A DNA stretch of 53,148 bases, filler included, from Jimgerdemannia flammicorona (GCA_003990765.1; 2 parts of 2 records of this genome joined end to end with filler, not necessarily neighbours in it); one strand, 5' to 3'. Shown: positions 1-26,626, numbered from the whole stretch's first letter. The notes: generated from the sequence alone by a model not told the origin. A program made the numbers and translations.

Positions 1-1431
1 CAAGGCACTGGTAGAATTTGTACTCGAACTTGCGGGCGAGGTCGTCTGGCAGGGGAGAGTATGAACCGATGGTATATAGAATGCCGTGTTCGGCCATGTC
101 TCGGGCGACACTGCGAGTATTGCAGGCGGACAGAAACGCCAGTCGTGCCTTCCTGTCCAGCCGCGACGGTCAGATATAGTGTGGTCCGCAATATCTGTAA
201 TCCGCATTGCACCGACGCATCCGGTGTGTGCCCCGTTCGTGTCCGGCGTGTGCCCCAGTTGTGGACCGGATGTTTTATTCCCACAGTTTACTCTTTACCG
301 CCACCCACCACCACCTCTTCCTCTTCCTCTAACTATGGGTCGTGTTAAACAGAACACATCATCAACCAAGAGCACCGAATTGGCCCGTGCGGCCAGACGT
401 GTGAGCCCCAAACCCCCCGGTGCAAGACGATTGAACAGATTTGCCCTCCTGGGTGCCAGCGAACTCACGGAAATCAAGACTCTAAGTACAAAAGCCAAAG
501 ACTTTGATACGAGAGCACCATTAACCAAACGGAACCACGACCTGGTCGCTAGGCAGTGGGACGAGTATATGGCAGTTAATGGAGTTCCAAAGGCAGCAGC
601 ATGGACTATCCAACATGCGACTGTGGGTATGTAGAATGTAATTGCTGATACCCTCGAGCATCTCCTTTATTTATTTATTTTTACTAACATTATATTTCAT
701 TCTCAGATAATATAAAGAGCTTCCTGATTGCGAAAGCAATGACAACATCAAGCAAGAATAAAACACCTATGGCGAAGAAATATCTAAAGGCAACTCAGAG
801 GTTATTACAAAAACTGGTATGTATACCTTCAAATTTGTTTTGATTTTTAATATTATTCAGACTTGTTCTAATATTTGTTATAGCTATGGAAAGATGTTGA
901 AAACTTTCAACTTTCTGATGGTGATAAAATACAAATTACCCAGGTATGAATGTTTGTTATTATTGCTTATGGAGAGGTTTATTATAAATATATATAAACT
1001 AAAATATATATTATATTACAGGCAGTTGATATGATCTCAAACCAGTGCAATCTTATAATAGCTCAAAAGTCTAAAACATTTATTGGCAAATCAGAGCTTT
1101 GTGTTCTGGTGCAGAAGGCACATAGAAATAACTATAACTGAGATCTTATATTTAAATACATTATACTGTAGCTGTTAATGATATTTATAGCCATCCATCC
1201 AGAATTACTTATTTCAAGTACTACACACTATCACTATGACAGAGTCTTGAAATGGAGTATATATTTGATATTTTTTTATTTATTAACATACATAATATTA
1301 TTTAGAGATGCTAATATACTATTTGCTATAAGACATCAAGTTGACATATGAGGGATTAGATAAACTGAGTTCAGTTTTTCATTCAACAATAGTATTCTAT
1401 ACTGTAAAGAGAGGCAAAGCACCATATATAT

Positions 1432-2856
1432 TATAACATGCTGGCTCAATGGAGGCAAATTACAAGGTTGGGGGTTGATGTAGTTTGGCTTGAGCCCCCA
1501 GTTACTTTGTCAAAAAGCAACAAAATGTTCTATGATTCCTGAGGTCCTTGGTGTTTAATGGTATAATAGTCAAAGCTGGATATCTGCGAGCAATTTCCTT
1601 ATTGGGACTGTTCTCTGGGTGTAGCGGCGATTTGTGTGTGAATGGATTTCCTTCTTGAATTAACTGGGAATGCCACAATAATTTGTATAGTGCGATGATC
1701 TCCAAAAGTATACAATTTCCGGGTGACGATCTTGTGTAGCATGATGGTCTGGTAATTTAGCAGTTCTCCTTCTTGGGTGGCGGGTGATCTTCATATAGTG
1801 CAGTAGATTCCTTATGCAGGACGTTCTGATAATTGGGCAGATTACTCAATCTGGCTCACTGGGAATTGTATGGTGTGGGTTCTTCCATAACAGGCTCACT
1901 GGGAATGGCGAATAGCTCAGATATCGTGAGAGGCAGATAATTCAATAACTCAGGTAACTCAGATGATACAGATTCTTCCTGAATCGGTGGGGTTCTTCTG
2001 GGAATGTGGTGGCTTAACTGGGAATTAACTCAAGTGGCACAGATTCTTCTAAATCGGCAGCTTCAACTGGGAATACAGTGGGTAACTTAGAAATGGCGGG
2101 TGATGCGGATTCTTCCTGAATCGGCGGACTCTAACTGGGAAATGGGATGGTGGTTTGGAAAGGGTCTCTTGGCAAAGTTGCATTAAGGACTGGCTTCATT
2201 TGCATGATGAATCACTGCGAAGTTGCATCAGAAACTGGCTTGAGCAAGGTGGCTTTCTTGGGAAGGCGGAGGATAGGGTTCTTCAGGCTTATCTGGCAAG
2301 CATACCAATAGTATGGCTTATTTCTTTAAGCGGTGGGTTCTTCAAAAGGTGGCAAAGTTCTTCTTGAACTTAGGTGGCAATTCTTCAGGCTTATCTGGCA
2401 AGCGAACCAATAGTTCCAAAGGTGACAAAGTTCTTCCTCGAACTTGGCAGCAAAATCAGCTTTATATCGGAAAGTGGACCAGAGTAGAAAGGGGACTAAT
2501 ACTCAATATTTAGAGGCTTCTTTGGTATTTGTATTTCGGACTGAGGTTTTTATTCACTCTCATCTCTGGGGTAATTTATACAAGTTGGTTGCTATCTGGT
2601 TACTATGTAGCTAACTATAGATCTGCTACTTATGGCAGGTGTACAGAGTCTATATGGTATACAGGACCTGTATAGTGTACAGAGTCTGTATGGTGTACAG
2701 AGTCTGTACAGGTAAACAGACCCTTTCTGGTATATCTGGCTATTTATATAGTTTTCCTCGGCAACAGTTGCTGGTTACTAAGCTGTGTGTTCATGTCATC
2801 TTGTTCACATCATCTGGTTAAAATATGATTCAGGTGGTACCTCTTGGCTTGTCACA
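1432..2856 (-). repeat. 3' LTR
   Basis: Colinear direct repeat of 10402-11826. On the + strand it starts TATAAC (TG decayed to TA) and ends GTCACA. Contains ~18-bp tandem repeats (TGTACAGAGTCTGTATGG-like, ~2638-2712). Confidence 0.96.
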
Positions 2857-2869
2857 TTAGCCCCCACTG
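2857..2869 (-). promoter_or_regulatory. Polypurine-tract-like sequence
   Basis: Minus strand CAGTGGGGGCTAA immediately before the 3' LTR. Confidence 0.55.
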
Positions 2870-2895
2870 AAGGGTAGTCTGTCTCAGACTATTCT

Positions 2896-3411
2896 TCAGT
2901 CATCATCCCAATAAGTATAGGCTGCTTCTGTATCTATACCTGTTCCATCATCTTCATTGTCTGTACTGGGGTTACTCCATTCTATGGGCTCTTCTTCTTC
3001 TTCAGGGAATAGGATTTCGACGGAGTTGATAATACTCAGGTAGATAATAGGATTCATTCCTTGAATATCATTCAGAGAGAATTGTGCCTGTGTCAGGGCT
3101 GTGACATTTCGTTTGTAGATAGTGTATAGTCTGTCTGCGGCAGTAGTGTCTCTTCTGGTCAGACCTGTGATATTCCTGATATAGGTCTGTTCTGGGGCCG
3201 AAAGGTTCTGCAATTGTTCACTGATTGCATAATAGGCCTGCAATTGGTGGACCTGTAGTAGGCGTCTGGCCAACGTGAGATTTTCTTGATAGGCTTGGAT
3301 CCTTTGAAGGGGGCTTCCATTGGCTTGACTGAATTGGGGTAGAGGGACAGATAGGGCTTGGAAGGAGCTGAGGACCAATGTCTGGAGGTGCTGATCAATC
3401 CTTTGGCTCAT
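2896..3411 (-). CDS. Accessory 3' ORF of the Ty3 element (171 aa, acidic C-terminus, unknown function)
   Basis: Open frame MSQRIDQHLQ...YTYWDDD between integrase and PPT; its ATG overlaps the pol stop (ATGA at 3411-3408). Confidence 0.7.
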   Translation of the reverse strand: MSQRIDQHLQTLVLSSFQALSVPLPQFSQANGSPLQRIQAYQENLTLARRLLQVHQLQAYYAISEQLQNLSAPEQTYIRNITGLTRRDTTAADRLYTIYKRNVTALTQAQFSLNDIQGMNPIIYLSIINSVEILFPEEEEEPIEWSNPSTDNEDDGTGIDTEAAYTYWDDD

Positions 3412-6400
3412 GATGTAGAGGGGAAATATAGTTTGAGGTGATTGATGTGTACTGGTGTTCTCAGGGTTCATCCATCCATACTTCTTAAATAGATGCTGGT
3501 TCCTCTGATGTTGTGTACAAGGTAAGGTCCTTCCCATTTCGGTTCCAGTTTAGCAGCAAAGTTTGTCTCAATCATACTTCTCCAAACTAGGACTTGATCT
3601 CCAATCTTGATCTCCTGATCCTTCTGTTTTTGGTTATAGTACTTCTTTTGTCTTTCCTGGGCTTTCTTAATCTGTCCTTGGGCTTGATTTCGTAACTGTT
3701 CTGCCTTCTTCAGGAGGTCTCCGAGATTCTCATGGTCAGCAGTTCTGGTTTTCTTAGCAAACATCATTTTGAATAGCTTTTGTTTGGTGGATGTGGCAGG
3801 GGTATTCCGAATTTCCCATAGGATCTCAGGTAAGCAGAGGTCCCAATTAGTAGGGTTGACTTAGGTAAGTCCTTTCTTGATGGTCTGGTTCATTCTTTCT
3901 GTCATGCCATTGGTCTGGGGGTGGTATGATGTGGTCCTTTTGAGGTGGATCTTGTGAATTCAGGCATAGCTTGTGATTATGTTATTGATGAATTCTGTGC
4001 CTCGGTCAGAGATGAGTTCTTCTGGAGGTCCATATCTGAGTGTGAGTCCATGGAGGAGGTCTACAATGGTTAAGGCATCTGCAATTTCCATTGGGAAAGC
4101 CTCAGGCCACTTGGTCAGATGTTCTACAAATACAAGAATGTATTTGTTTCTTCTTGGTGTAACTGGTAGAGGTCTAATTATGTCTACCCCCCATCTTTGA
4201 AGGATGTGAGTGGGTGGGGGAATTGGTTGCAGAGGAGCTTGATAGTTCTTCTTTCCTTGGTACTTCTGGCAGATGTCACATTTCTGGATGATGTCCCAAA
4301 CTTGAGTTCTGAGGTGGGGCCAATGTTGATGTTGTTTTCGAATCCTGTCTTCTATGCTTGTCTGTCCTTGGTGGGCTTTCTGATATTCTTTTTGGATAAG
4401 ATCTTCTTGTACTTTGATAGTCTGAGGAGCTTCTTTTAGGGTGTGGTTCCTTGGGACACCCTTCCTCTGATTCATTGGGGCTGGTGGAAAAGTACATCAA
4501 TATTGTTGTGGGCTTTCCCTGCTTTGTGAATGATGGTGATTTTGTAATCCTAAAGGATAAGGATCCAGCAGGCTAGAATTCCAGCAGGTTCCTTGTGGTT
4601 GAATAACCATTTAAGGGCTACATGGTCTGTGATCAGGGTGAACCTTTTTCTGATTAGATAATGCTTGAACAGGGTGATCACCCATATGACTGCAAGGCAT
4701 TCCAGTTTGGTGCTACCATAGTTCATCTGCTGCTGGTTGGTAGCCCTGCTTGCATAAGCTATCACATGGTGCTGTTGGTCAGGTCCTTCTTGGGCTAGAA
4801 CTGCTCCTAGGCCATCTTTAGAAGCATCTGTATACAAGATGAATGGCTTCTGTAGATTGGGGTACACAAGGATTGGTGCTGTAGTCATACAGTTCTTGAG
4901 TTCTCTGAAGGCTTTTTCCTGTGATTCTGTCCATTTGAACGGTACTCCTTTCTTGAGAAGGGTTTGGATTGGGGTGGCGATTTGGGCAAAGTCTTTGATA
5001 AACCTTCTGTAGTAAGATACTAGTATCAAGAATGATAGTGTTTCCTTTGGAGTCTTGGGTACTGGCCAATTGTTGATCTTCTCGGGTTTCTTTGGATCTG
5101 TATGAGTTCCTTCTTTTGAGACCATGAATCCAAGGAATTCGAGTTTCTGTTTTCCAAAGTAGCATTTCTTTGCATTCAGTCTCAAGTGATTCTTGCAGGT
5201 GAGCTTGAAGAATTCCTCTAGGTGGTGTAGGTGTTCTTCGAAATTTGCTGAATAGATATTGGAATCATCCATGTATACAATCAGACAGTGGTGGATTAAG
5301 GGGGCATAGACTGAATTCATCATCCTCTGGAAGGTGGGGGGTGCATTGCAAAGTCCAAAGGGCATTCAGAGGTATTCAAACAGTTTTCCTAGAGCAAGGA
5401 AGGCTGTCTTTTGAATGTCCTTGGGGTCCATGGGAATCTCATGGAATCCCATGAAGAGGTCCATACTGCTGAAGTATCTGGCATCTTGTAACTGGTCTAA
5501 AAGGTCATCGATTCTGGGCAAAGGATAAGTATCCTTTTCAGTGACTGAGTTGAGTTTTCTGTAATCCACGCAGAGTCTCCATCCTCCTTTCTTTGGTACA
5601 ATAAGTATAGGGCTGGCCCAGGGGCTGGTAGAGGGTCAGATGACTCCATTGTCTAAGAGTTCTTGAATATGCTCCTTTTCAAATGTTTTCAAGTAGTGGG
5701 GTATTCTATAGGGTTTCTGCCAGATAGGTGTTGCAGTATGGCAGGTTGCCATAATCGGTGGTGAAGATATCTTGATATTTGTTGAGAAGTTCTACTAGTT
5801 GTTGCTGTTATTGAGGTGTCAATTCTTCTCCAATGTTGGTGGAAGGCTTCACTGTCTTCTGGGTCGCAGAGGGGCCTTTCCTTTCTTCTGGGACCTTTTG
5901 CTGTTTCCTGATAGGTTTAGTTCATAAACTTCCCTATGAGTTCAGTTGAGAAAAGGCACCAGATATCCTATGATGGTTCCTTTCGGCAGGATGATGGTCT
6001 CCCAACTTTGGTTGGTTGCTCAGGAGTATACTGGGTTCATTTTGTCAGGGAATGTGTATCCCTCTATGTCCAGGTGTGGGATATCTTCCTTGGGTTCAAA
6101 GAAAAGGTTCCTGGGGTCGGGTGGTGCAAATATTTCGAAGGTGGCCTGTTCTCCAGACTCCAGGATGAGATTCTTGTGTAGTCTGACTGGTTGCTGGTAT
6201 ACTTGCTGGGGAACATTCCTCTTGAGGTGGTTGACTTGAAGGAGATGTACCTCTTCCCTATCTGAACTTCCAAATCCCTTGGCTTGTCTTGTTCCTTCAG
6301 TTAGTTCAGAGACTTCCTGTAACTGTGGGGTCTTGATCTTCATGAAGACTGCTTGGGCAATCTTCTGTCCTCTAATGATTCGGTGCCATTCTGCACTGCT

Positions 6401-9400
6401 GTTGTGTAGGATGACCTTGATTTTGCCTGTATATCCAGGGTCAATGGTTCCTCCTTCTACAGTTATCTCTTGTCTGGTGAGCCCGGACCTTGAGGTCAGT
6501 TGAATATAAGCTCCTTGAGGTGGTTGTATGGCTAATCCAGTTCTGACCATGAAGGTTTTTTCAGGCTTGATAGATTCATCCTCCAGGCTGTGAAGATCAT
6601 ATCCTATGTCCTCTGGGTGGGCTTTGGTCAGGGGTTTGGCCTTAGGGTGTAGCAGGGTATACTGGGCAATATCCTTGCTGAGTTCGGGCTTCCCTAAGGC
6701 TGAAGCTCTACTGGCGGAAAGCCTCCAAGCTCTAAGGTTAAGGTGTGGCCATCTGGCTCCAGTAGAGGGGTCCCGGAGGTAATTGATTCCCCTCCTTCCT
6801 GTAGGGTCAAGGGCTTCCATGAAGTTGGTGGCATCTTCTGCCCATCCTTGGCAGGTTGCATGTCTGATGAGAGTTAGGATATCTTCTTCCAAATCATAGA
6901 TCTTGAGAATTCTTTTTCCGGGCTTCTTTGTCTGGCTTTTTCGAATCTGACTTTTTCAGATCTGGCTTCAGTTATCTCCTTTCTTCAAAGTATATACTGC
7001 AACATCATGACTGAGGTGAATCTTCTGATGTCTGCAGTCTTGGCAATCAGGGTGTCTCCCATGGTTGCAATACCCCATTGCTCGGAAATGGTGTTCCTGG
7101 CTATTTATCTCTTGTTGTCTTGGGAATCAGTACCCATCTTGATCATAGGTTGGGGGAAGGGTAGACAAAGGGTATATTTCTGTTTGGGTAAAGAAGCCTT
7201 ATCCTCTAAATCAACTTTGTAACCTTGTGGTGACTTCTTGAAAGGTAGTAGACTGTGCAAGAGTAGTTGGGGGTTCTGGTCTCTGAGGTCTCTGTCTTTC
7301 TTGTTGATCCAACAGATGATACTAATAGCAGTAGTCTCAGGGAGAGTGGAAGACCATTTGATGTGGACATCTTCCTAGCTGGAAAGCTTTCTCTTGGTGG
7401 GTTTCTTTTTTGGGGATAATGGTGATGGTACTGGGTCCTTCTTCGGTATTTCAAGGATCATTGTCTTCAGGTGGTGTCCAATGAGGATCATCCCAAGGAA
7501 TGAGTTCGGGGACTTCTTCTTCTTCTCTGTGTACTTCTTGTTCAGGGACTTCTTGATCAGAAGTTTCTTCTTCCTTGGATGATTCTTGGCCCCAAATTGC
7601 TTATACTTCTATAGCTTTGATTGCAGGTGTTTCTGGAATATGTCTGCATTTCTTCTTCTTCCTTCTGCACTCCAGGTAGGCTGTGCCAGGTGATTTCCTT
7701 GTTCCCATGATCTTGGAGGAGTGCTCAGGACACTTGTGTCTCTTCAGGCATGTAGGGCATCCTTTGGCTTCTCCTGCAATGGCTCCAATAGTGATAGGAA
7801 TAATGTTTTTGGCCCACACATTGTCTTCTGGTCTGTCATCCACCAGGTTAATTTGGGGACTGAGTCTGGGATCATTTCCATCTTCAGATTCTTCTTCATC
7901 TTCTGTGGTGGATTCTCCACTACTGGCATACTCTTCCTGAATAGTGACCTTCTTTTTCTTCTTCGATTGCTCATAGCTGGTCACCTTAACTCTGTACTTC
8001 TTGCCTCGGTAGTCAAACTTGAGTGCTTGTTGGCTGATATCAACAACTGCATTCATTTCCTTCATCCAGTTGGTACCAAGAATCATGTCATAGGTGATAG
8101 CTTCGGTGACAACAGCTTTGGGGATGGAGAACTGAATGTGTCCAAGGGAGATAGTGATATTTCATACTTCTCCAAGGGGTTGGGTTTGGGCACCATCTGC
8201 TACTATGATGCTGAGGTTGGATGGTCCATCAATGGGCCATTGGAGGGTGTCCAGAAACTGTTTGGCAATGATACAGATAGCTACTTCTGTATCTATGAGG
8301 ATTTTTGCTTTTTGTCCTCCAATGTCTCCATGTAAGTAGGTGCTGATATGTCTTTCAGCTGCTTGAACAGGGATGGAGGCTGGTTCTTGCTGTGGGATTG
8401 GAACTCAGCCAGTGCTAGACCTGGTGGTTCTCAATAGTTTGTTTCAGACTCCAGCTGGTGTCAGTTACAGGAACTGCAGGAGAGAGACTTCCATCTTGGC
8501 TTCTTGAATCTTCTGCCAGGCTTCATTGTAAATATCCCTAGGTATGGTCTTTGGGGTGTACTTCTTCTTAGACTTTGGAGCAGCAGGTTCCTGTTCTTCT
8601 TGTTCCATTTCTTCATCTTCTGGTAGTAGTTCATTTGTCTTAGGCACAAAAGGTGAGGGGGTTTGGGGAGGTGTTTCAACTTGTTCCTCCTCATGTTCTT
8701 CATCTTCTTCTTGAATAATTCTTCTGCTGATGTTCCTGGATGGTCTTCCCACAGGTCTCTTTCTTTTTTCTGCTGGGTAGACTGTCTTTCGGGTGGTAAC
8801 CTTGGTAGGATACAAGTCTAGGTCACTGTAGTCTTCACTGTTGCTTGCTTCCTTGAAATCTTCAACTGGATGGGCTTCAGTCTTCTTGTACTGAGTGTCA
8901 TTCCTTTGGTTTGGTGGTTCTGAGTCTCTTCAGTCACTTCTTTTGTTGTCACATTCAGTGGCATAGTGTCTGAATTGTCCACAGTAGAAGCATTGGACTT
9001 GGGCTCTGTCTCGGACAGAGTACCTTCTTTCTTCTTGCTGGTAATTTCTGTTATCTCTTGGTAGATAACCTTGGCTCCTCTGTGGTGGATACCCTCTGTT
9101 GTTTTGGTAGTCCCAATTTTCGCGTATGGTGAGTTTCTCAATCTACCCAATCAGTTGGTCTAACTTGGAGCTGAGGTCTTGAATTTCACTTCTGTCCTCC
9201 TTTCCTTTCTTGGCTGGCCTTCTTTCTTCAGACCTTTCTTGTCCTTGAAGGAGTCCTTGCAGGGCTTTGACCAGGATATCTTCCTTATCTTCCTTCTTGT
9301 CATGATCACTCCAGGTAGTTCCTTGCCTGACATCAAAGAATCCTTGGACTGTATCTACTTGCTCTTCAGACCTTCTGATGCCTAGGGTGCAGACATGCTG

Positions 9401-10369
9401 GGCAATGTTTGGAGGAATTCCATTCATGAAGGTCATTAGACCTATGATATCTTGGTTGGTGGCATTGAACCTGGCAGAATGCATTCTCTTCTGGATTCTT
9501 ATGAAGAAGGCTCTGGGTGATTCTCCAAGATTCATCTTCATTCCCATGTTAGATTTCTGAGCCTTGTAGCGGGTTTCATTTCCTGTATACTTTTCGATGA
9601 GCCAGTAGACCATGGCCTCATATTCTAGCTTATCAGAGAATGCTGCTTGTATCTGTCTTACCAGTTCCGAATCTGGGTTGTTTGCTGTTCAGTGGAAAAT
9701 TCCTCTAGCTGGTTCTCTAAGCTGGGCTTTGTAGATGGCGATTTTTCTTTCATCTGAGAGGTTTCTCAAGGCTGCACTTCCTTCAATTCCATCAAGGAAT
9801 TCTCTGGGGTCTTCCTCCAGATATTCTGCAAAAGTTGGCAATAAGGTGGCCATTTCGTCATCACTTTCTTCTAATTCTGGTTCAGGTTCAGATTCTGATT
9901 CTGATTCACTTTCTGAACTGTCACTAGAGGCAGGAGTGCTTGGGTATCTTGAAGATGGTGTTCTGGTCCTTGGGTGAGGTGGAATAGGCCTAGGTATTCT
10001 TGTAGGAGCTACTTCTGGTTCTGTAAGAGGTTGTGGTAGGGGTTCTATTGGTGATATTGGTGGGACTAGTGTGGGGTGTCTGGCTGTAAAGTGTTGGGTC
10101 TGGGTAATAAAGTCTTCTAGCTCTTGTGCAAGTTCTCCAAAAACTCTAGTGGGGCTGTCTGTATTGTCTGGTTGGGGATTTTGGGCTGTACTGCCTCCTG
10201 CTTCTGGTTGGGATCCTTCTGATGCTGGGTAGTTGGCAAGTCTTGAGGTGATTACTTCTCTTCCTGTCCAAATGCTAGTGATGACTGGTTCTTCTGTAGT
10301 GGCAGATGTTGGTGTGGTATCAAATGTATCCAGTTTGACTGTGGGTTCTTGTGAGCTGAAAAGTCACAT
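3408..10369 (-). pseudogene. gag-pol polyprotein with many premature stops
   Basis: CCHC knuckle CFYCGQFRHYATEC (~8952-8995); aspartic protease ILIDTEVA (~8280-8305); RT DYRKLN, YPLPRIDDLLD, MPFGLCNAPPTFQR, YMDD; RNase H YTDAS, LITDH; integrase H-H-CxxC, WGVD, SDRGTEF, GPY motif (KWEGPY); final stop at 3408-3410. Confidence 0.95.
6260..6667 (-). CDS. dUTPase domain within retrotransposon pol (between protease and RT)
   Basis: All five trimeric dUTPase motifs in ORF 6020-6892: GYDL, SRSGL, GGTIDPGYTG, KIAQ, RQAKGFGSS. Confidence 0.95.
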
Positions 10370-10382
10370 CGATTTGAAATCT

Positions 10383-10399
10383 TCCCAGTTGAGCCCCCA
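10383..10399 (-). promoter_or_regulatory. Primer-binding site, probably tRNA-Pro
   Basis: Minus strand TGGGGGCTCAACTGGGA, 2 nt after the 5' LTR; resembles the tRNA-Pro PBS TGGGGGCTCGTCCGGGA, allowing for CpG decay. Confidence 0.75.
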
Positions 10400-10401
10400 A
10401 A

Positions 10402-11826
10402 TGTAATGTGCCAGCTCAATGGAGGCAAATTACAAGGTTGGGGGTTGATGTAGTTTGGCTTGAGCCCCCAGTTACTTTGTCAAAAAGCAACAAAATATTC
10501 TATGATTCCTGAGGTCCTTGGTGTTTAGCAGTATAATAGTCAAAGCTGGATATCTGTGAGCGATTTCCTTATTGGAACTGTTCTCTGGGTGTAGTGGCAA
10601 TTTGTGTACAAATGGGGTTCCTTCTTGGGTCAACTGAGAATGCCACAATAATTTGTGTAGCACAATGATCTCCAAAAGTATGCAATTTCTGGGTGATGAT
10701 CTTGTGTAGCATGATGGTCTGGTAATTTAGCAGTTCTCCTTCTTGAGTGGCAGGTGATCTTCATGTAGCACAGTAGATTTCTTATGCAGGACATTCTGAT
10801 AATTGGGCAGATTACTCGATCTGGCTCACTGGGAATTGTATGGCGTGAGTTCTTCTGTAACAGGCTCACTGGGAATAGCAAATAGCTTGGATGTCGTGGG
10901 AGGTGGATAATTCAATAACTCAGGTAACTTGGATGATGCAGATTCTTCCTGAATCGGTGGAGTTCTTCTGGGAATATGGTAGCTTAACTGGGAATTAACT
11001 TGGGTGGTGCGGATTCTTCTAAATTGGCAGCTTCAACTGGGAATATGGCAGATAACTTAGAAATGGCAGGTGACGTGGATTCTTTCTGAATCAGTGGGCT
11101 CTAACTGGGAAATGGGATGGTGGTTTGGAAAGGGTCTCTTGGCAAAGTTGTGTTAAGGACTGGCTTCGTTTATATGATGAATTACTACGAAGTTGTGTCA
11201 GAAACTAACTTGAGCAAGGTGGCTTTCTTGGGAAGGTAGAGGATAGGGTTCTTCAGGCTTATCTGGCAAGCATACCAATAGTGCAGCTTATTCCTTTAAG
11301 TGGCAGGTTCTTCAAAAGGTGGCGAAGTTCTTCTTGAACTTAGGCGGCAATTCTTCAGGCTTATCTGGCAAGCGAACCAATAGTTCCAAAGGTGGCAAAG
11401 TTCTTCCTCAAACTTGGCGGCAAAATCAGCTTTGTATCAGAAAGTGGACTGGAGTAAAAAGGGGACCAATGCTCAATCTTTAGAGGCTTCTTTGGTATTT
11501 GTATTTTGGACTGAGGTTTTTATTCACTCTCATCTCTGGGGTAATTTATACAAGTTGGTTACTATCTGGTTACTATGTGGCTAACTATAGATCTGCTACT
11601 TATGGCAGATATACAGAGTCTGTACGGTATACAGGACCTGTACAGTGTACAGAGTCTGTATGGTGTACAGAGTCTGTACAGGTAAACAGACCTTTTCTGG
11701 TATGTCTGGCTATTTATACAGTTTTCCTCGGCAATAGTTGCTGGTTACTAAGCTGTGTGTTCATGTCATCTTGTTCATGTCATCTGGTTAAGATATGATT
11801 TAGGTGGTACCTCTTGGCTTGTCACA
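10402..11826 (-). repeat. 5' LTR
   Basis: TG...CA termini; direct repeat of 1432-2856; differences are mostly transitions at CpG. Confidence 0.96.
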
Positions 11827-12247
11827 ATATATATAATATCTATAATTGATATATGTAAATATCTATATTTTATTAATTTATTATTATTATTATATAGACT
11901 TTCATAGATTATATAATTAGTACAGAATACTCAAAAACCAAACTTGTGTCTTATTATTATACTTATTATCTAAGCTATTCAGTATAGTATCTTTAAAGTA
12001 TTTACAACTCTAAAAGATCTATTTTAGTCCAAATATACTATTATTGAGTAGGCACCAGAGATGCTGAATATTGTGATATTTCAGAATAATATTATAAATA
12101 GTTCTTTATCAATTATCATACAAAAGGTTGGATATTCAGATATATATAATAATATATATAGTATACTAATCTGTATTTTGTACTTAAGTTCTAATATAAA
12201 TATTATTTATCTAGATATATTTATAGTATATATATTTTGCCAAAGTA

Positions 12248-13844
12248 CAGTAAGGGACAAAAGTGATCAAATGTTATTTTATTATTATTATTTTATTTTA
12301 TTGTAGCTTAAATATGAGTTCTATTAAATTCATATTATAACCAATAATTTAGTAACTCTAGAGCTTCCAAAAAATATTAGTTTTAATTTATTTTATTAAT
12401 CTTAAATAAAAGTTTATGACATTTAAAGTAGGATTACTGATTTGATCACTTTTGTCCCCCACCCTTATTTGGACTATCTTCAGGCAGTTATTTCAGATAT
12501 AATTATCCTATTACTATAGAATTTTTCTCTATTATTCTTATCAATATACTCTATCAATTTCAATCTTCAAAATATTTTAAAAATAATGAGAAGGCTCCCC
12601 ATTGATATTTATAACTACATAATTAACGTATTATATTCTGGCATATCTATATACAAGGTTTCCAAGGAGATGGATGTTAGTTATAGATGTATGGCATAAA
12701 TAAGAAAGGAGGATTGTACCGACATCATCATTGAATCAAAAAACAGCCACCCATATATACTTATCACTTTCATTATAAGTAGTTTGCCAAATTACCTCTG
12801 GTAAGGCTGAAACTATCTTCAAGGTTGTCAAACTGATGAAAGAAGTTGGGAAAACCATCAGCACTAAGACTATATATAGAATGCTGAAAAAAGTGAGTAT
12901 GAAAGCCATCATCAAGCAAAAAAAACTGAGATTGCTCACATACCATAAGAAGGCTCAGTACAAATTTGCCCAAAAATATAAGAATTGGACAGTCAATGAT
13001 TAGAAACATGTCATTTTCTCAGATGAGACCAAGATCAACCACTTTGGCTCTGATGGATGCCTATGGGTGTGGAAGAAATCCAGACCTGGTACACTACTTG
13101 AAGACTGCCATGTGACTAGTACCACTAAATTCAGAGACAGTTCAGTGATGATTTGAGGCTATATGTTATTTACCAGTATTGGATATATATGAAAAATAAA
13201 TAGTAGAATGGACAGCAAACTCTACAAAAGTATCCGTGATGATAAATTGAAGAAATCCATCAAATATTTTAAGATATAGCTGAAAAAAAATTTATTCCAG
13301 CAAGATAATGATTCAAAGTATATGTTCAGTTTGGCATAGAAATGATTCAAAAGCCATTCAATCTACTTGTTAGACTGGCTGGCACAATCACCTGACCTAA
13401 ATCCTATAGAATATCTGTAGTGGTATATTAAAAGGAGGCTCAATATATATGAGGAAGCACTAAAGGGAATGCAGGTGCTTTGGGAGTGGGTGGAAGATGA
13501 GTAGAATGAGGTTCCTGATAATGTTTGTGCTGGATTGGTAGAGAGTATGCTGAGATATATTGCAGCAGTATTCAAAGCTAAGGGTGGTTATGTAAAATAT
13601 TAAAGTTATCAATAAAATAGATATGATAATGCATCAAGGACAAAAGTGATCAAATTAGTGATCCTACTTTAAATGCTATAAACTTTTATTTATAATTAAT
13701 AAAATAAATTAAAACTAATATTTTTTGGAAGCTCTAGGGTTACTAAATTATTGGTTATAATATGAATTTAATAGAACTCATATTTAAGCTATAATAAAAT
13801 GAAATAATAATAAGATAACATTTGATCACTTTTGTCCCTCACTA
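12248..13844 (+). mobile_element. Tc1/mariner (Tc1, DD34E-type) DNA transposon, degenerate
   Basis: ~210-bp TIRs starting CAGTAAGGGACAAAAGTGATCAAAT; TA duplications at 12246-12247 and 13845-13846; transposase remnant inside. Confidence 0.95.
12586..13603 (+). pseudogene. Tc1 transposase with stops and frameshifts
   Basis: Motifs VIFSDETKIN, FQQDND, DWLAQSPDLNPIE and terminal AKGGYVKY*. Confidence 0.93.
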
Positions 13845-15719
13845 TATAGCTGATGCAATTGTCAAGAAGAATAGAGATACTAAAGCAAAGCAAGTATTAT
13901 ATCACTCATTCAAATCAGAGATATTATATATATACTATATATGACTGATAAATATTAATATAGTAGAAGCAATACTAGATAATAATATCTTAGCACAATA
14001 TTAAGATAATGTGATTACATTTAGACCTCTACTATTATAGATCCCAATACTATGAATCAATCCAAACTAACTTAACAGAGACTTCAGGACATAGATACTG
14101 ATATTATTAAATAGAGAGTAGATGCAAATATATTAAAAAAGAAACTAAATCTAAATAGAATACAAAAATGGCACTATCTAATAAGATTTTATTTTACAAA
14201 GCATTTAATACATCAGTATCTCCTAATATATATATATACTTATTTTATTTATTAAATCAGAAAAACATCTGATTTACTCAAACAATACAAAAAATTATTA
14301 TGGTTTATAAAAGTATATACTCAAACTCAAATGTTATGAGATATCTAATTTAATAACTACTGTAGAGCTTGAGCAACAAGCTAAGATAATTTAAATAGAA
14401 ACTGAACTGATCTATATTGATGTATCATCTACTAAGATTAATGATATTATTCAATCAGTTTCTGATATACAAAAAAGACAGGCCTTAGTCAGATATGCTA
14501 TAACTTGTTTGATAGAAATATAAAGAACCTATATATTATATTCTAATTTAAACTGCTATTATATAATATATATCTATAGATATTCTTGTACTAAACCTAG
14601 AGGGTATATTTCAACAGTAGTAACAGAAGATATCAAAAACACTATATAGACAAAAGATGATGACAAAATATTATAGAAGATATATATACTATATAGCTAT
14701 TAGTAAGAGAAGATAGCATCAATGATTCCAGGAAAAGAGAGTTATAACTATCAATATAGATGAGATAATATATTAGTTTTATTTATTAATAAGACATAAT
14801 AGATATTTGATAAAGATATACTATTATATCAATATTACTATAAACATAGATATAGTTAGATAACAATTTCAGCTAATATCTCTAATAGAACTCCAGATAT
14901 ATAGTATAGATAAATAACAGTACTCTTAAAAAGAAATCATATTATAGCAGAAACAAAATACAAGTAAATGTCTATATAACAGTATTATAAAAAATAATAG
15001 TCTACTATATACAATAATCTCTTCTCTATACTTATTTATAAATATATATTATTTAAAATATTAGACAAATTCACTATATTATAATACTTATTATATTCTA
15101 GATATATCTGTGTGATACTAGTATATATGAGTTATATTTCTTTACTATTTTATATAAGTATACTCACTCTATTAAAGTTAGGACCATAGTGTCAAATATA
15201 GCAAAATATTGTATTATAATAGTTATTTAGATATACTAAAATATATAGTATATTGTATAATACTAAAATTACTATGTTATATAATTAATTATATATAATA
15301 ATGATATTGATGATTATATTCATCAGTATTTAGATCTGTGAATACTCTCAGTATACTACTTGATGACTCAGAGTAGCTTATACCCTCTAGATTATCTAGT
15401 TGATTTTCTATATATTTTAGCTGAATTAAAATTCTTACCATGCTGAAATTCATAGATCTCAAAGTTATAGTGATTTGTATTTTGAATATATTTATATTAT
15501 CATAAATTAGATCTACCTCTATATCTGTATAGTGATATTTAGAGGTTGTGTATTCCAGGGCTCATATTAGACTTATTGATACTCTTCAATTCTTACATTT
15601 CATCAGCTATATACTGTAGTTGGTTTTTGTTTAAATCTTGGTCTATAAATATATATTATAACAGTGATCCCAGAATAATAATATCAATACAGGAGACAGT
15701 CTTTCCTTACAAGCCACCA

Positions 15720-16406
15720 GATTGAAGCACAAGAAGATTATATGGCATATGAGATGAGCAATAATGACCAACTGTAAGTCATTGTAACCACAGTATGGTA
15801 TCTTGAGGAATATAAAAGAAGGATCAAGAAACTGTAGTAGCAGCAACCAACAAGACCCACCAATCCCAAAATAGCTCAAAGACTTACCATAAATAAAATA
15901 CCTGCTGTCTACCAAATCTCAAGGTCAAGGAACCACCAAGGCATCTCAGTTGAAGAAAGGATGTTCCAAGACATCAGAAGAGCCATGAGGACCCACTCAA
16001 GAAGGACTCCTAGTGTCAACCTGGGTACTGGTGACCCTTATCACTATATTCTCTACTGCTATGAAATGGAAAGAAGGATCACCATTGCTACCAAATATCC
16101 CCAAATGTGGCGAAGTATGAAATAGGAAACCTCCTCTGTCAAGAGTTCCCACAGGCCAGCCCTCAAGAGCTACAAGATACTACTCCCATAGATAAATATA
16201 AGACAAGAATAGCTAAGAAGATCCATCAGATCTTCAGGTATGTACCATGGTTGATCCCCAACTTGGAGTATATTAAAGTCTCAGATTTCAGAGACCTGTC
16301 ATTCCACTATATCAATATACTAGAAACCAAGGTGGCTACAGAAGCCCAGTCCACCATTACCCTCAATAGTGATGAAGTAGAAGACTTCTGGTATCTCATC
16401 CTTTAG
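15720..16406 (+). pseudogene. Degenerate ORF, probably a retroelement remnant resembling the Ty3 accessory 3' ORF
   Basis: CpG-depleted, coding-like stretch with stops and a frameshift. KYEIGNLL...KTRIAKKIHQIF...IKVSDFRDLS aligns by eye with YYAISEQL...DTTAADRLYTIY...FSLNDIQGMN of 2896-3411. Confidence 0.4.
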
Positions 16407-16596: not shown

Positions 16597-16665
16597 TTTT
16601 TTTTATTTTATTTTTTTTTTTATTTTTATTTTTATTTTTATTTTTATTTTTTTTTATTTTTTTTT
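16597..16665 (-). repeat. A-rich T(A)n tail at the terminus of the Penelope-like array
   Basis: Runs of 4-11 A separated by single T on the minus strand, abutting element sequence ...CTCGTTTTATAAT at 16666. Confidence 0.75.
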
Positions 16666-17395
16666 ATTATAAAACGAGTAGATAATAGTGGAAGAGTTTA
16701 GAGCAAGATGTGATACTGTTACGGCAGATATGAAGGTTGGCGGTAAAAGGTCAAATAGTTATAAAAAGCTTATGTGAATTTTTACAACGGAACAAAAGTG
16801 AGCAGAATAAAGTGTTTTCCGAAGCAAGGTGCAATAGATCTGCAACCCGCTCATGGCACCGCAATTTACGATGGTCTTTATTCAAAAATAAAAACAAAGT
16901 TCGGATAAACAAAGACATGAATCTAACCCCGGAATTTCAGAATCAGACAGGTACATAAGTACCCGGACCTTGCCCCGATCCAAACAAAGGTCTGAATCGG
17001 GCTTTGTTGATCTACACATGTGACGGGCTATTAAAAACCCGATATAGTAACAATTGGGAAAAGGTACCGGTCACATGATCTAGTGTTACACAAACAGTAA
17101 ACAATGCCAAAAACGGAACTAGACCAATGACACGTCACGTGTTGTCATGTGATTGTCACTTATAGGTTTAAAAACCTAAAAATCGTCGGCACCCAAAGGC
17201 GCAGGCATCAGGCCTAGAGCCTCATGATCGGAGCAGAGTAGAGCCTCGGCACCGGAGCGAGCGAAGTGAGCGGAGGTAGACAGGCATCACGGAGTGTAGG
17301 TATGCAGGCGTCAGGCCTAGAGCCTCGCGCCAGAGGTTGTCCGGTGATTTTTTGCATTTTTAAACATTGTACGGCACGTACAAGTGGTGCGGCCT

Positions 17396-19408
17396 TCAAG
17401 GAGGACTTATAGCAAAGCTGGTGTTTGAGACGGCGTTAAGAATGGTTAAACCATTCTTCCGGGCGACGATGGGTCGTCGGGTGGTCGCAGGGAAACCAAA
17501 ACGAAGCAAAGCAGTACGTAGAGTCTTGTCGGGCTGTTGATGTAGCCATCGGGCCATGTCGTATTGGATGACAAGTAGCGGGGGAGGAAAAGCGGAGTGG
17601 GGGATGGGGGGGTGGGAAATAAGGGGAGGAGTGAGAAGTGAAGTTCGGACCTCAAGCCAATCAACCAAACTCAATTGAGCGGTTACAACATCAACAGGGT
17701 ATCCTTTCCTGTGAACCAGGAACTCGGCCAAAGACTGACACTCATCAAGCCAATCATGGCGCGATGAGCAGAGTAGCGATAGGCGGCGGGCTTCATTCAC
17801 AATGCATAGATGGAGCGTCTTCCTAGGATGATTGCTCAACCAGTCGACAAACTGCGTACTATGTGGGAATTTTGCAAAGCGGCCTGTGTGGAATAGTGCG
17901 ACTTGGATTTCCAGGTCTAAGTAATGGCACGGTCCGGTGGACAAGACTTCCCATTCGATACGATGGTGCAGAGGGTACACGGCAGCAAAGATCGAGGCCA
18001 AGTCCATGATCGCGGGCACAAAGACAATAAGATCATCAATGTACCGGTGGAACTTTAGCCCGGCAGCGATGGCTTGGCTAAGCAGATGATCGGGCGTTTG
18101 CAAGGCATGCAACTCATGAGCAAAACCAACAAGATTGGCAAGATCCGGAGCACAATTGGTGCCTATAGCAATACCAGTCACAGAGCAGAAGGAACCGATG
18201 GCAGATGTAAACGTCGTATGAGTCATGACTATGCGGACAAGGCCGAGAATGGCTTCAAGCGGCAAAGAGCCAGGGGGGAAGGCCACCGTTGACAAAAAGG
18301 TGAGGCAGTCGATGCATTCATCTAATGTGATCCTGGTGTAGAAGGCGGCGAAATCTCCAGTAGTGACGTATAAACAATCTGACACATCAAGGTAATCTGA
18401 ATGAACCAATTGAAGCAGTTCGAGTGTATCACGTAGAGGTGAATAATGAGAGTAACCCACATTAAGGCGCAGATGGGCCGACCACAGATGGAGAAAGTGA
18501 GATAGGAAACGCGAAATCTCGGTCATGGGAGAGTTAAACGCACCAACGATAGGGCGCCATGCCATGCGAGCCCCTTTGTATACCTTGGGCATAGCGTGAA
18601 ACATGGGTAGCTTACAATCGATGGGCTCCATGAGGTGTTCCCAAATCGGCATACAATTATGATCACCAATGCAGAACTTGAGTAGACTAAGAAGGTCTAG
18701 CCTCACTGATTCCTTAATGTTATCAATTGTAGAGGGATCATTCACATATGCAGGATCGTGAAGGAGAGACCAAAGACCGTCAAGATATAGAGCACGCGGT
18801 ATAACAGCGAACCCCAGATTCTTATCGGTAAGACAGACAGTGAAGTCATCATGAGTATGGACGCCTTTAAGAAGGCGGTGGAACTTCTTCGATACAAGCA
18901 CGCCGGACACATTCGTCATGGGTCAGACAGCTTGATTTAAAGCGGCACTCATATAGAGCATAATTTGCATATTTTCCATACAGTGTGGCGGTCGCCATTT
19001 TGATGGCACCCAGGCGGAGATCTCCGGGATGTCGTCAGGATTACCCATAGAGGTCCAGAAGGTAGCAAGGTCGAGACGCCGTTGGAATGATGACAACGAA
19101 ATTGGGTTGATGGTACTGTTCATCGATGCTGACCCGGGGAGAATGAACTTAGGGCCAAAGTTCAGCATATACGTGAGCTCGGGGGTAAGCCAAGGCAGAG
19201 GTATATTGGTAACAAAGCCCTCCTCGGTAAACATCCGAAACCGAGGGACGAAAAACTGACTTAAGCGAGAACCGGGAAGAGAAGACATGAAGGCAAAATC
19301 CTCAATTGGTGTCGAGGCCGCTACCCCACGTGGAATGGGGACATCGGGGCCAAACCACGCTACTGGGAAGTCGTATAAGACTTCCAGGCTGGGGACCTCT
19401 AGTTTTTT
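17396..19408 (-). pseudogene. Penelope-like reverse transcriptase (one internal stop at 18923-18925), no GIY-YIG domain
   Basis: PLE RT motifs LNFGPKF, TDKNLG, HAMPKVYK, RPIV, TGDFAAFYTRI, GIAIGTNCAPDLANL, RYIDD, YLDL, SNHP, RPIVARKN; the frame ends shortly after the last of these. Confidence 0.92.
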
Positions 19409-20559
19409 TATGCTAGAGGGCAGGTATCGCTGGCATTATGCCAGACGACATAATGTTTAGCGGCAGTATACTTGTTGCACTGCAGCACAAACGCCCTGGT
19501 GGCACTCTTAGATGAGTGGCTCGAAGTCGACGAGCAGCTGGTCCCGGTAGAAGCGGGGGAAACAGATGGGGAAGGTGAAGCCTTACGTGCTCGCTTGACC
19601 CCTTTTACAGAACCCTCCGTCAAAGCGGGGGCTAGGGGGCAAGGACCCCGGTGGGCCTTTGTAGGCACACCAAGACATCTAGAACAACTACAGCAGTTCG
19701 GCGCAATGGAGGCTGAGGTCACCTTCACCTCCTTCACCTTTCCCGCAGCCTCTGCAGACACGGCGGTAGAGGGTAGGGGAGTGGGGACGCTCTTTTTCGG
19801 TCGGGCGGAACCAGTAGCAGCAGAAGCAAATGTGCATTTCGCATCCGGAGTAACGATCTCGGGGCGCTTCCCAAGCTCCTCAACTACGGCTTTGCGGGCG
19901 GCGGCGGAAATCCCATCTTGCAGGGAGGAGGACGCAGGGGCTGTCGGGCGGACAGTGGTGGCAGCAGCTTTGGCAGCAGCGGCAGCGGCAAGACGGTGAG
20001 ACTGACGCATGACAACGTCAAAACCACAGAACAAGAACAAGTTTGTCTTGGCCCGGTCGGTGGCAGCAAGGGTAGCAATATTCTTAGCAACCCCTAGAGT
20101 GATATCGACTGATACACCAAAAAATTGATGGGCATCGGAAGAACCACCCATGGCCTTGTCGATTTTAGCATACTGGTCCTTAGCATGCTGGGCGGTAGCT
20201 TCTTGATCAGAAACGGCAGCCTCAATCACGGCAGTGGCATGGCGCTTAGCTTCTGCCGAAGCAGTAGCAAGGGCGATGTCACACTGCTCCTCAGGTAGGA
20301 GGGCGATAGTAGCAGCTACCTTCTTGGAAGGAGTAAACCTCCAATCGGCAACTTGGGCCCGAAGGAAATCGGCATGGCGTTCTTTTGTGGTGGCGACCTC
20401 AAGGGCAGAGAGCACTTCGGTGCAAGCAGCACAGAAGTAGAGAGGGACCTCGGCAGATGTGGCAGCAATATAGGCTGCAAGGTTGTCGAACTCCGCCAAA
20501 TCGGTGAAGGAAGCTTTGGGGATGGCAGCATCGCCATCTACATTCATATTATCTGTCAT
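19408..20559 (-). CDS. PLE ORF1 (Ala-rich helical N-terminus, Pro/Ser/Lys-rich linker, two Cys/His motifs)
   Basis: 383-aa ORF; homologous copies at 21774-22934 and from 25664. Confidence 0.85.
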   Translation of the reverse strand: MTDNMNVDGDAAIPKASFTDLAEFDNLAAYIAATSAEVPLYFCAACTEVLSALEVATTKERHADFLRAQVADWRFTPSKKVAATIALLPEEQCDIALATASAEAKRHATAVIEAAVSDQEATAQHAKDQYAKIDKAMGGSSDAHQFFGVSVDITLGVAKNIATLAATDRAKTNLFLFCGFDVVMRQSHRLAAAAAAKAAATTVRPTAPASSSLQDGISAAARKAVVEELGKRPEIVTPDAKCTFASAATGSARPKKSVPTPLPSTAVSAEAAGKVKEVKVTSASIAPNCCSCSRCLGVPTKAHRGPCPLAPALTEGSVKGVKRARKASPSPSVSPASTGTSCSSTSSHSSKSATRAFVLQCNKYTAAKHYVVWHNASDTCPLA

Positions 20560-21773
20560 GTTGTGTATTATAAAACAAGTAGATAATAGCAGAAGAGTTT
20601 AGAGCGAGATGTGATACTGTTATGGCAGATATGAAGATCGGCAGTAAAAGATCAAATAGTTATAAAAAGCTTATGTGAATTTTCACGACGGAACAAAAGT
20701 GAGCGGAATAAAGTGTTTTCTGAAGCAAGGTGCAATAGATCTGCAACCTGCTCACGGCACTGCAATTTGCAATAGTCTTTATTCAAAAATAAAAACAAAG
20801 TTCAGATAAACAAAGACACGGATCTAACCCCGGAATTCCGGAATCAGACAGATGCATAAGTACCCAGACCTTGCCCCGATCCAAACAAAGGTCTGAATCG
20901 GGCTTCATCGATCTACACACATGACGGGCCATTAAAAACCCGATATAGTAACAATTGGGAAAAGGTACCGGTCACATGATCTAGTGTTACACAAACAGTA
21001 AACAATGCCAAAAATGGAACTAGACCAATGACACATCACATGTTGTCACATGATTGTCACTTATAGGTTTAAAAACCTAAAAATCATTGGCACCTGAAGG
21101 CACAGGCGTCAGGCCTAGAGCCTCGCGACTGGAGTGGAGTAGAGCCTTGGCACCGGAGCAAGCGAAGTGAGCGGAGGTAGACAGGCATCACGGAGCATAG
21201 GTACACAGGTGTCAGGCCTAGAGCCTCACGCTGGAGGTTGTCCAGCGATTTTTCGTGTTTTTAAACCTATAAGTGACAATCACGTGACAACACGTGACGT
21301 GTCATTGGTCTAGTTCCGTTTTTGGCATTGTTTACTGTTTGTGTAACACTAGATCACGTGACCGGTACCTTTTCCTGATTGTTACTATATCGGGTTTTTA
21401 ATGGCCCGTCACATGTATAGATCGATGAAGCCCGATTCAGATCTTTGTTTGGATCGGGGCAAGGTCCGGGTACTTATGCACCAGTCCGATTCTGGAATTC
21501 CGGGGTTAGATCCGTGTCTTTGTTTATCTGAACTTTGTTTTTATTTTTGAATAAAGACCATCACAAATTGCGGTGCCATGAGCGGGTTGCAGATCTATTG
21601 CACCTTGCTTCGGAAAATACTTTATTCCGCTTGCTTTTGTTCCGTCGTGAAAATTCACATAAGCTTTTTATAACTATTTGACCTTTTACCGCCGACCTTC
21701 ATATCCGCCATAACAGTATCACATTTCGCTCTAAACTCTTCTACTATTATCTACTCGTTTTATAATACACAAC

Positions 21774-22934
21774 ATAACAGATAATATAAATGTAGATGGC
21801 GATACTGCCGTCCCCAAAGCTTCCTTCACCGATTTGGCGGAGTTTGACAACCTTATAGCCTATATTGCTGCCGCGTCTGCCGAGGTCCCTCTCTACTTCC
21901 GTGCTGCTTGCACCGGAGTGCTCTCTGCCCTTGAGGTCGCCGCTGCGAAAGAACGCCGTGCCGATTTCCTTTGGGCCCAAGTTGCTGATTGGAGGTTTAC
22001 TCCTTCCAAGAAGATAGCTGCTACCATCGCCCTCCTACCTGAGGAGCAGCGTGATGCCACCCTTGCTACTGCTTCAGCAGAAGCTAAGCACCGCACCACT
22101 GCCGCGATTGAGGCTGCCGTTTCTGATCAAGAAGCTGCCACCCAGCATGCTAAGGACTAGCGTGCTAAAATCGACAAGGCCATGGGTGGTTCTTTGGATG
22201 CCCATCAATTTTTTGGTGTATCGGTCGATATCACTTTAGGGGTTGCTAAGAATATCGCTACCCTTGCTGCCACCGACCAGGCCAAGACAAACTTGTTCTT
22301 GTTCCGTGGTTTTGACGTTATCATGCATCAGTCTCACCGTCTTGCCGCCGCCGCCACTGCCAAAGCCGCTGCCACCGCCGTCCGCCTGACAGCCCCTGCG
22401 TCCTCCTCCCTGTAAGATGGGATTTCCGCCGCTACCCACAAAGCCGTAGTTGAGGAGCTTGGGAAGCGCCCCGAGATCGTTACTCTGGGTGCGAAACACA
22501 CATTTGCTTCTGCTGCCGCTGGTTCCGCCCGACCAAAAAAGAGCATCCCCACCCCCCTACCCTCTACCGCCGCGCCTGCGGGGGCTGCGGGAAAGGTGAA
22601 GGAGGTGAAGGTGACCTTGGCCTCCATTGCGCCGAACTGCCATAGTTGTTCTGGACGTCTTGGTATGCCTACGAAGGCCCACTGGGGTCCTTGCCCCCTA
22701 GCCCCTGCTTTGACGGAGGGTTCTGTAAAAGGGGTCAAGTGAGCGCGTAAGGCTTCACCTTCCCTGTCCGTTTCCTCCGCTTCTACCGGGACCAGCCGCT
22801 CATCGACTTCGAGCTGCTCGTCTAAGAGCGCCACCAGGGCGTTTGTACCGCAGTGCAACAAGTGTACTGCCGCTAAACGTCATGTTGTCTGGTATAATGC
22901 CGGCGATGCCTGCCCTCTAGCATCAAAAAACTAG
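21774..22934 (+). pseudogene. PLE ORF1, copy 2
   Basis: In-frame fragments 21834-22160 and 22182-22415 match ORF 19408-20559; ends CPLASKN*. Confidence 0.85.
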
Positions 22935-22967
22935 AGGTCCCCAGCCCGGAAGTCTTATATGACTTCC
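22925..22967 (+). promoter_or_regulatory. Putative -1 programmed ribosomal frameshift signal (A_AAA_AAC plus downstream hairpin)
   Basis: TCA AAA AAC TAG ends ORF1; the RT is in the -1 frame and open from the heptamer; GGAAGTC-ttatat-GACTTCC stem at 22948-22967. Confidence 0.75.
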
Positions 22968-24937: not shown

Positions 24938-25167
24938 AGGCCGCACCGCTTGTACGTACCGTGCGATGTTTAAAAATGTGAAAAATCGCCGAACAACCTC
25001 TGGCGCGAGGCTCTAGGCCTGACACCTGCGTACCTATGCTCTGTGACACCTGTCTACCTCCGCTCGCTTCGCTCGCTCTGGTGCCAAGGCTCTACTCCAC
25101 TCTGGTCGCGAGGCTCTAGGCCTGATGCCTGCGCCTTTGGGTGCCAACGATTTTTAGGTTTTTAAAC

Positions 25168-26526: not shown

Positions 26527-26626
26527 NNNNNNNNNNNNNNNNNNNNNNNNNNNNNNNNNNNNNNNNNNNNTTAATTAATTAANNNNNNNNNNNNNNNNNN
26601 NNNNNNNNNNNNNNNNNNNNNNNNNN
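26527..26626. other. Artificial contig spacer
   Basis: 44 N + TTAATTAATTAA (stops in all six frames) + 44 N = 100 bp. Confidence 0.95.

Follow-up and report, generated by a model that had tools for sequence, protein, structure and literature searches.

The DUF3435 family includes both the CryptonF transposases and the captains of Starships, and Goodwin et al. 2003 is reportedly the source named for CryptonF. According to the available portions of Kojima & Jurka 2011 (PMC3212892), CryptonF elements are fungal elements of a few kb that have a tyrosine recombinase as their sole enzyme and no inverted or long terminal repeats (LTRs); 6-bp terminal direct repeats are described for them, and they are known from Ascomycota, Basidiomycota and 'Zygomycota', the latter represented by Rhizopus oryzae, a Mucoromycota relative. 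Repeats bearing DUF3435 were initially annotated as Cryptons, as related in the accessible text of Gluck-Thaler 2022 (PMC9156397), and the starfish survey (Gluck-Thaler & Vogan 2024, PMC11162782) reports, in the sections available, no Starship recombinases outside Dikarya. The locus described here lies within a stretch of 53,148 nucleotides, filler included, from Jimgerdemannia flammicorona (GCA_003990765.1; two parts joined end to end), hereafter called the window, and consists of a gene that begins at position 335 and is split by two nested transposons. It is very probably a dead, intron-containing recombinase gene of the DUF3435 family, most likely that of a small Crypton-type DNA transposon of Endogonales (Mucoromycota). 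By analogy, an enzyme of such a family would cut and rejoin DNA through its catalytic tyrosine, and would excise its own element as a circle and re-insert it at short matching sequences.

The identity of the gene was established through a bridging protein. A read-through of 335-1432 was compared by phmmer with 1.84 billion (1.84e9) representative proteins, four of which were retrieved at E <= 0.001: P0002 (99 amino acids) and P0004 (111 amino acids) match exon 1, with 88% identity at E 3.9e-47 and 39% identity at E 5.9e-11, respectively, while P0003 (327 amino acids) and P0005 (78 amino acids) match exon 4, with 51% identity at E 2.3e-15 and 40% identity at E 1e-7, the alignment of P0005 to exon 4 reaching E 7e-15 by tblastn. 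P0003, partial but free of interruptions, is assigned to Jimgerdemannia flammicorona, and P0002 comes from the same species of Endogonales; the two are encoded on different contigs (2,122 bp for P0003 and 12,977 bp for P0002), an indirect hint of a family of copies. A sequence-only reading of this DNA had already suggested an early-diverging fungus and that intact copies may exist elsewhere; the origin of the two closest proteins, both transposon-associated, agrees with the former and the uninterrupted P0003 with the latter. A UGGT exon of the window, compared with the ESM Atlas to place the host, matched only broad eukaryotic clusters. Aligned to the window by tblastn, P0003 gives five colinear matches flanking both insertions: its residues 1-27 lie at 739-819 (E 0.048), 44-131 at 1013-1273 and 126-153 at 1332-1415 (a linked pair at E 3.4e-23, the former with 50% identity), 158-250 at 11890-12141 (E 1.3e-13) and 262-323 at 13849-14034 (E 1e-3). 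This colinearity on either side of each transposon bears out the proposal that a single gene was interrupted twice. In blastp, P0003 matches the spliced read-through at E 6e-49 with 158 bits, while the reversed sequence gives no match and none of 20 shuffles exceeds 25.8 bits. P0003 in turn matches Pfam DUF3435 (PF11917) over residues 76-309 with an E-value of 2.7e-13 and a score of 50.1 bits (curated cut-off 25.8); its precomputed Pfam entry is PF11917 as well, and a weak Phage_integrase match (residues 208-281) falls at the expected place. Its two nearest feature clusters in the ESM Atlas are DUF3435 (0.95 and 0.94), and the Atlas model of the protein (predicted template modelling score, pTM, 0.72) has a template modelling (TM) score of 0.72 to a DUF3435 cluster and of 0.57-0.63 to Phage_integrase clusters; an AlphaFold2 single-sequence model, with a mean predicted local distance difference test (pLDDT) of 35, was too low for use. 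The reconstructed protein was expected to match PF11917 and does so transitively, through its link to P0003; the assignment of the locus as a predicted DUF3435-family tyrosine recombinase gene, via one bridging protein, is thus supported.

After removal of both insertions and of four GT-AG introns, a single reading frame runs from the ATG at 335 to at least 14034. The excised segments, 1432-11830 and 12248-13846, correspond to each element together with one copy of its target site, and their removal restores one frame as had been proposed: in 11831-12247 the gene frame has five stops and the two alternative frames 12 and 13. The introns read from ATG 335 in the sequence-only reading are likewise confirmed as canonical, all four being GT..AG with the donors GTATGT, GTATGT, GTATGA and GTATAT. 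On the plus strand, exon 1 (335..626; 97 codons plus one base, 52% GC, with homology to P0002 and P0004) is followed by intron 1 (627..706; 80 nucleotides, GTATGT..CAG, with TACTAAC at 682-688), by exon 2 (707..816), an open frame that takes in most of the first P0003 match at 739-819, by intron 2 (817..883; 67 nucleotides, GTATGT..TAG), by exon 3 (884..943), whose 20 codons align with P0003 in the spliced model, and by intron 3 (944..1021; 78 nucleotides, GTATGA..CAG). Exon 4 (1022..1256, plus strand), with homology to P0003 and P0005, comprises the core-binding region and box I; it reads HPE at 1196-1204 where R-P-G is expected and LKW at 1247-1255, and its two stops (1139 and 1169) both stand opposite Trp codons in the alignment to P0003. 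The intron that comes next had been recognised at the outset, but its extent is better drawn differently: the preferred version of intron 4 (1257..1332, plus strand; 76 nucleotides, GTATAT..AAG, in frame) agrees with P0003 to within one residue and eliminates one stop, whereas the alternative acceptor at 1305 gives a 49-nucleotide intron and eight additional codons, one of them a stop.

Exon 5 is the exon that the transposons divide. Its first part (1333..1431, plus strand) aligns with P0003 residues 126-153 and carries VKRG at 1404-1415, the putative catalytic Lys hairpin. Its middle part (11831..12247, plus strand; 19% GC), which holds the match to residues 158-250, reads from LS-stop-II-stop-LVQ..NLCL to YIFCQS, in which box II shows R>C and R>Q. 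Its last aligned part (13847..14034, plus strand), corresponding to residues 262-323, begins IADAIV.. and contains YH at 13900-13905 and the putative catalytic Tyr at 13936-13938. The four motifs HPE, VKRG, FCQS (12235-12246) and YH are thus found where they had been reported. A gene end at the first in-frame stop, at 13942, does not hold, as homology to P0003 continues beyond it to 14034, where the partial P0003 itself ends. The AT-rich tail that follows (14035..15700, plus strand; 23% GC) may contain what is left of the gene or element: at 14035-14700 on the plus strand, two frames with few stops (1-2 per 50 codons) extend over some 600 nucleotides past the last homology and may represent a decayed C-terminal domain, and since these frames persist to about 14,700, the gene is probably longer than its aligned part. 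A Pfam search in six frames of 13847-15750 returned no family, on a sequence that is 23% GC and stop-rich and therefore offers a weak search.

At the junction of the LTR insertion (1416-11866), the model holds 17 codons that are absent from P0003, exactly at the retrotransposon site; they may be a variable loop or an old intron. An intron around this site was considered and rejected, the sole GT..AG candidate seen being 43 nucleotides long and frame-breaking.

In terms of catalytic residues, P0003 carries R105, K151, R258, H280 and Y291 in an R..K..R..H..Y pattern; these are putatively catalytic, going by the pattern and spacing of other recombinases. The window retains the putative catalytic Lys, His and Tyr, while the first putative catalytic Arg has become H (1196) and the Arg-Arg pair has become C-Q (12238-12243), each one transition away from an Arg codon. 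The box II motif had originally been restored to YxFRRG by reversing transitions, which is right for the Arg losses but not for the last residue: the family of P0003 reads Y-R-R-S, the Ser is native, and no S-to-G reversal is needed. In the spliced model, 139 of 322 positions aligned with P0003 are identical (43%), and of the 183 mismatches, 74 are restored to the P0003 residue by undoing C>T or G>A in the window codon, as against 18 for the opposite direction and 20 for a transversion. Ten stops fall in the alignment, five opposite a Trp and one opposite an Arg of P0003. With 7-8 internal stops, five of them at Trp codons, and three putative catalytic Arg altered by transitions, this copy is dead; read from its codons, it cannot make a recombinase.

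This decay also bears on whether the locus might instead be a host gene of recombinase origin that has since decayed, a domestication of the Ndc10/Cbf2 kind that was never mobile in this lineage. The third-nearest Atlas cluster of P0003 is NDC10_II (0.94), commonest in Mucoromycota, P0002 may be an orthologous exon 1 in J. flammicorona, and a promoter-like gap of about 240 bp separates the gene from a divergent open reading frame (ORF). P0003, however, retains the residues that would be expected of an active recombinase, which domesticated forms lose according to the accessible text of PMC3212892; the locus has the same transition hypermutation as the surrounding transposons; and the relatives are divergent rather than conserved, at 43% identity for P0003, 38-39% for P0004 and 40% for P0005. 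A host-gene origin is accordingly unlikely, and a mobile-element recombinase is preferred. The divergent ORF is itself on the minus strand, starting at ATG 97 and running off the left end of the window (1-97), and its start is some 240 bp away from that of the recombinase gene; it has no Pfam match.

Exon 1 stands apart from the remainder of the gene. Its identity of 88% to P0002 (E 3.9e-47) and of 38-39% to P0004 (E 5.9e-11) extends to the gene structure: both proteins share its start Met and both end just past the same GT donor, while P0005 reads into intron 4 and ends just after LKW and the intron 4 donor. The introns are therefore supported by three relatives that truncate at the same donor points. 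The mismatches between exon 1 and P0002 show no transition asymmetry (3 vs 4 of 12), and the 99-residue exon 1 read-through, in an exact look-up, is absent from the protein collection. Exon 1 and the promoter region (335-640) have a GC content of 52-54% and are not hypermutated, while the gene from intron 1 onward is at 10-34%, with a sharp boundary between the two.

Both insertions are recognisable as transposons in their own right. A Ty3/gypsy LTR retrotransposon of 10.4 kb occupies 1432-11826 (minus strand); its two LTRs, 1432-2856 and 10402-11826, are identical at 1301 of 1425 positions (8.7% apart), and ATAT stands on each side of the element (1428-1431 and 11827-11830); its ORFs encode RVT_1, RNase H, rve/integrase and dUTPase domains, and at 44% GC it is less mutated than the gene. 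Its dUTPase domain lies at 6023-6955 (minus strand; E 6.5e-26), between the gag-like and reverse transcriptase regions. A Tc1/mariner element of 1.6 kb occupies 12248-13844 on the plus strand, with inverted ends of about 210 nucleotides, TA at 12246-7 and 13845-6, a GC content of 30% and a decayed one-frame transposase that matches HTH_Tnp_Tc3_2 at E 1.7e-7. The AT-rich DNA around both insertions is at 28% GC in 641-1431, 19% in 11827-12247 and 23% in 13847-15700. Because the gene is about as AT-rich as the Tc1 element, while the gypsy element is at 44% GC with LTRs 8.7% apart, insertion of Tc1 and the bulk of the hypermutation would have come first and the gypsy element later. In this order of events, the Tc1/mariner element would have inserted at a TA in the part of the gene that codes for box II; it and the gene would then have been heavily mutated from C to T and G to A, leaving them at 19-34% GC; and the Ty3/gypsy element would have inserted just behind the catalytic-lysine hairpin and been mutated less.

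What kind of element the recombinase belonged to is suggested by the dimensions of the locus. Once both transposons are subtracted, the AT-rich block measures about 3.1 kb, or about 3.4 kb including exon 1; beyond the gene and the insertions, no recognisable gene or cargo was seen in it by six-frame Pfam search, and it ends at about 15.7 kb, after which come another retroelement family and then ordinary host genes. Because this block is Crypton-sized, a Crypton-like element fits better than a Starship. Within a block whose limits are provisional, a recombinase as the only recognised enzyme, with no terminal inverted repeats or LTRs of its own seen, would be consistent with a Crypton. The sequence-only reading had left the gene as captain-like or Crypton-like; membership of the DUF3435 family stands, via P0003, while no evidence for a captain or Starship architecture or for cargo was found. 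Were the gene the captain of a degraded Starship, it would sit at the 5' end of a giant element with its cargo downstream, and it does share its Pfam family with captains, via P0003, and lies at the left end of a long stretch rich in transposable elements (335-26,600). Against this, the hypermutated block stops at about 15.7 kb with no recognisable gene besides the two insertions, it is succeeded by a different retroelement family and then by host genes, and the locus does not show the layout of a large, cargo-bearing element headed by a captain. The PF11917 match of P0003 is furthermore partial and weak, no tRNA, 5S or other Rfam family occurs anywhere in the window that could have been a tRNA or 5S target, and the starfish survey, in the sections available, places Starship recombinases within Dikarya only (PMC11162782). 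A degraded Starship is thus unlikely, and the locus is probably best filed as a Crypton-type pseudogene of a DUF3435-family recombinase.

Several results weigh against this identification. Contiguous read-through fragments of the window, none spanning more than 140 hypermutated domain residues, matched neither PF11917 nor any other recombinase family in Pfam at E <= 10, so membership of DUF3435 reaches the locus transitively, through P0003 alone, and P0003 covers only positions 12-254 of the 418 of the PF11917 profile, at a modest 50 bits. A sequence search of the PDB with the window fragments and with P0003 returned nothing relevant, which in the case of the fragments counts on the same side. 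With P0003 as the query, proteins of similar length yielded no sequence but P0003 itself and longer proteins yielded none, which leaves its family unsampled; a metagenome scan with a pattern derived from the alignment matched 210 stretches, 0 of which were confirmed. Pfam, run on six frames of 13847-15750, did not detect the GCR1_C domain that CryptonF carries, a weak test on a stop-rich sequence of 23% GC. Exon 1, lastly, is without hypermutation and is tied to the rest of the gene by splice-site logic only: none of the phmmer hits combines it with the body of the recombinase, and a search for exon 1 among longer proteins found nothing. Its membership of the gene is likely, if an inference. 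If the absence of any Pfam match on the fragments is taken at face value, there may be no gene here and the motifs may be a chance reading of AT-rich DNA, but this is refuted by the E-values of phmmer, tblastn and blastp and by the shuffle controls, and stops are scarce only in the gene frame and fall at Trp positions of P0003; a chance reading is hardly credible.

The transition bias of the recombinase gene is shared by the repeats around it, as all repeat pairs in the window differ nearly only by transitions. The ratio of transitions to transversions is 117:3 for 1432-2856 vs 10402-11826 (122:2 in a full-length alignment), 322:13 for 16640-21085 vs 21247-25681, 118:0 for 19709-21266 vs 24968-26514, 96:3 for 21242-22624 vs 25144-26514, 65:0 for 16665-17365 vs 20566-21266, and 11:1 for 12246-12457 vs 13638-13846; per-site rates in the five longer pairs follow CpG > CpA >> CpC > CpT. 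The pattern resembles a C-to-T hypermutation acting on repeats, in a genome that is probably of Mucoromycota, with deamination of methylated CpG and CpA as the conservative alternative. A 2025 survey (PMC12543289) found, in the text available, signatures like those of repeat-induced point mutation (RIP) enriched only in ascomycetes.

To the right of the locus lies the second repeat family (16640-26514), with copies 91-92% identical and a weak RVT_1 match only. A minus-strand copy at 16640-21266 has direct end repeats of 701 nucleotides, a second copy (21247-25681) is inverted, and a third is partial and in tandem. Neither RNase H nor integrase nor recombinase domains were seen in 16640-26514. 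Two gaps of 44 N each lie at 26527-26570 and 26583-26626, and the host genes of the window, which is eukaryotic and fungal in its features, are rich in short introns and encode UDP-glucose dehydrogenase, ferric reductase, Arf, DHBP synthase and UGGT. According to the available part of a review (PMC10386755), more than 77% of the J. flammicorona genome consists of repeats, mostly Ty3/gypsy; the makeup of the window fits this reported repeat-rich, Ty3/gypsy-dominated genome.

Taken alone, the locus is a dead copy of a gene type already known from mobile elements, and CryptonF had been reported from Rhizopus before. It adds a documented DUF3435-family recombinase locus, together with an intact relative, in Endogonales, an under-sampled fungal order for which the literature found, in the portions available, contains no report of DUF3435 or Crypton elements, and it offers a clean worked example of a gene read through nested insertions and hypermutation. 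Among the 1.84 billion representative proteins, the family has a single full relative that can be recognised. More tentatively, Endogonales may have their own lineage of DUF3435 recombinases with still-intact copies, standing beside or below the captains, along with repeat-directed C-to-T silencing outside Ascomycota; such a lineage, if real, would make the superfamily of captains and CryptonF older than Dikarya. The locus is a starting point for asking where this captain/Crypton superfamily arose.

By comparison with described systems, the locus is closest to CryptonF, which it resembles in size at about 3.4 kb, but unlike CryptonF it shows no detectable GCR1_C domain (in an insensitive test) and its present copy is dead. 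With the Starship captains, as presented in the accessible text of PMC8092012, PMC9156397 and PMC11162782, it shares the Pfam family, via P0003, as well as the layout of a core-binding and a catalytic domain and the R..K..R..H..Y pattern; it differs in that the profile match of P0003 is partial (12-254 of 418, 50 bits) and, at the level of the element, in having neither cargo nor giant dimensions and a host apparently outside Dikarya. Kirc of Podospora strain Wa139, which in the available account (Vogan 2021, PMC8092012) heads the giant element Enterprise in an ascomycete, is in this respect unlike the locus. In bringing a Crypton recombinase together with a mariner-type transposase and TA duplications, the locus resembles MarCry-1_FO of Fusarium oxysporum, which the accessible text of PMC3212892 describes as a single composite element, fused and moved by the transposase; here the two are not fused, and the Tc1 element, which interrupts the recombinase codons and is bounded by inverted ends and a TA duplication of its own, is a simple nested insertion.

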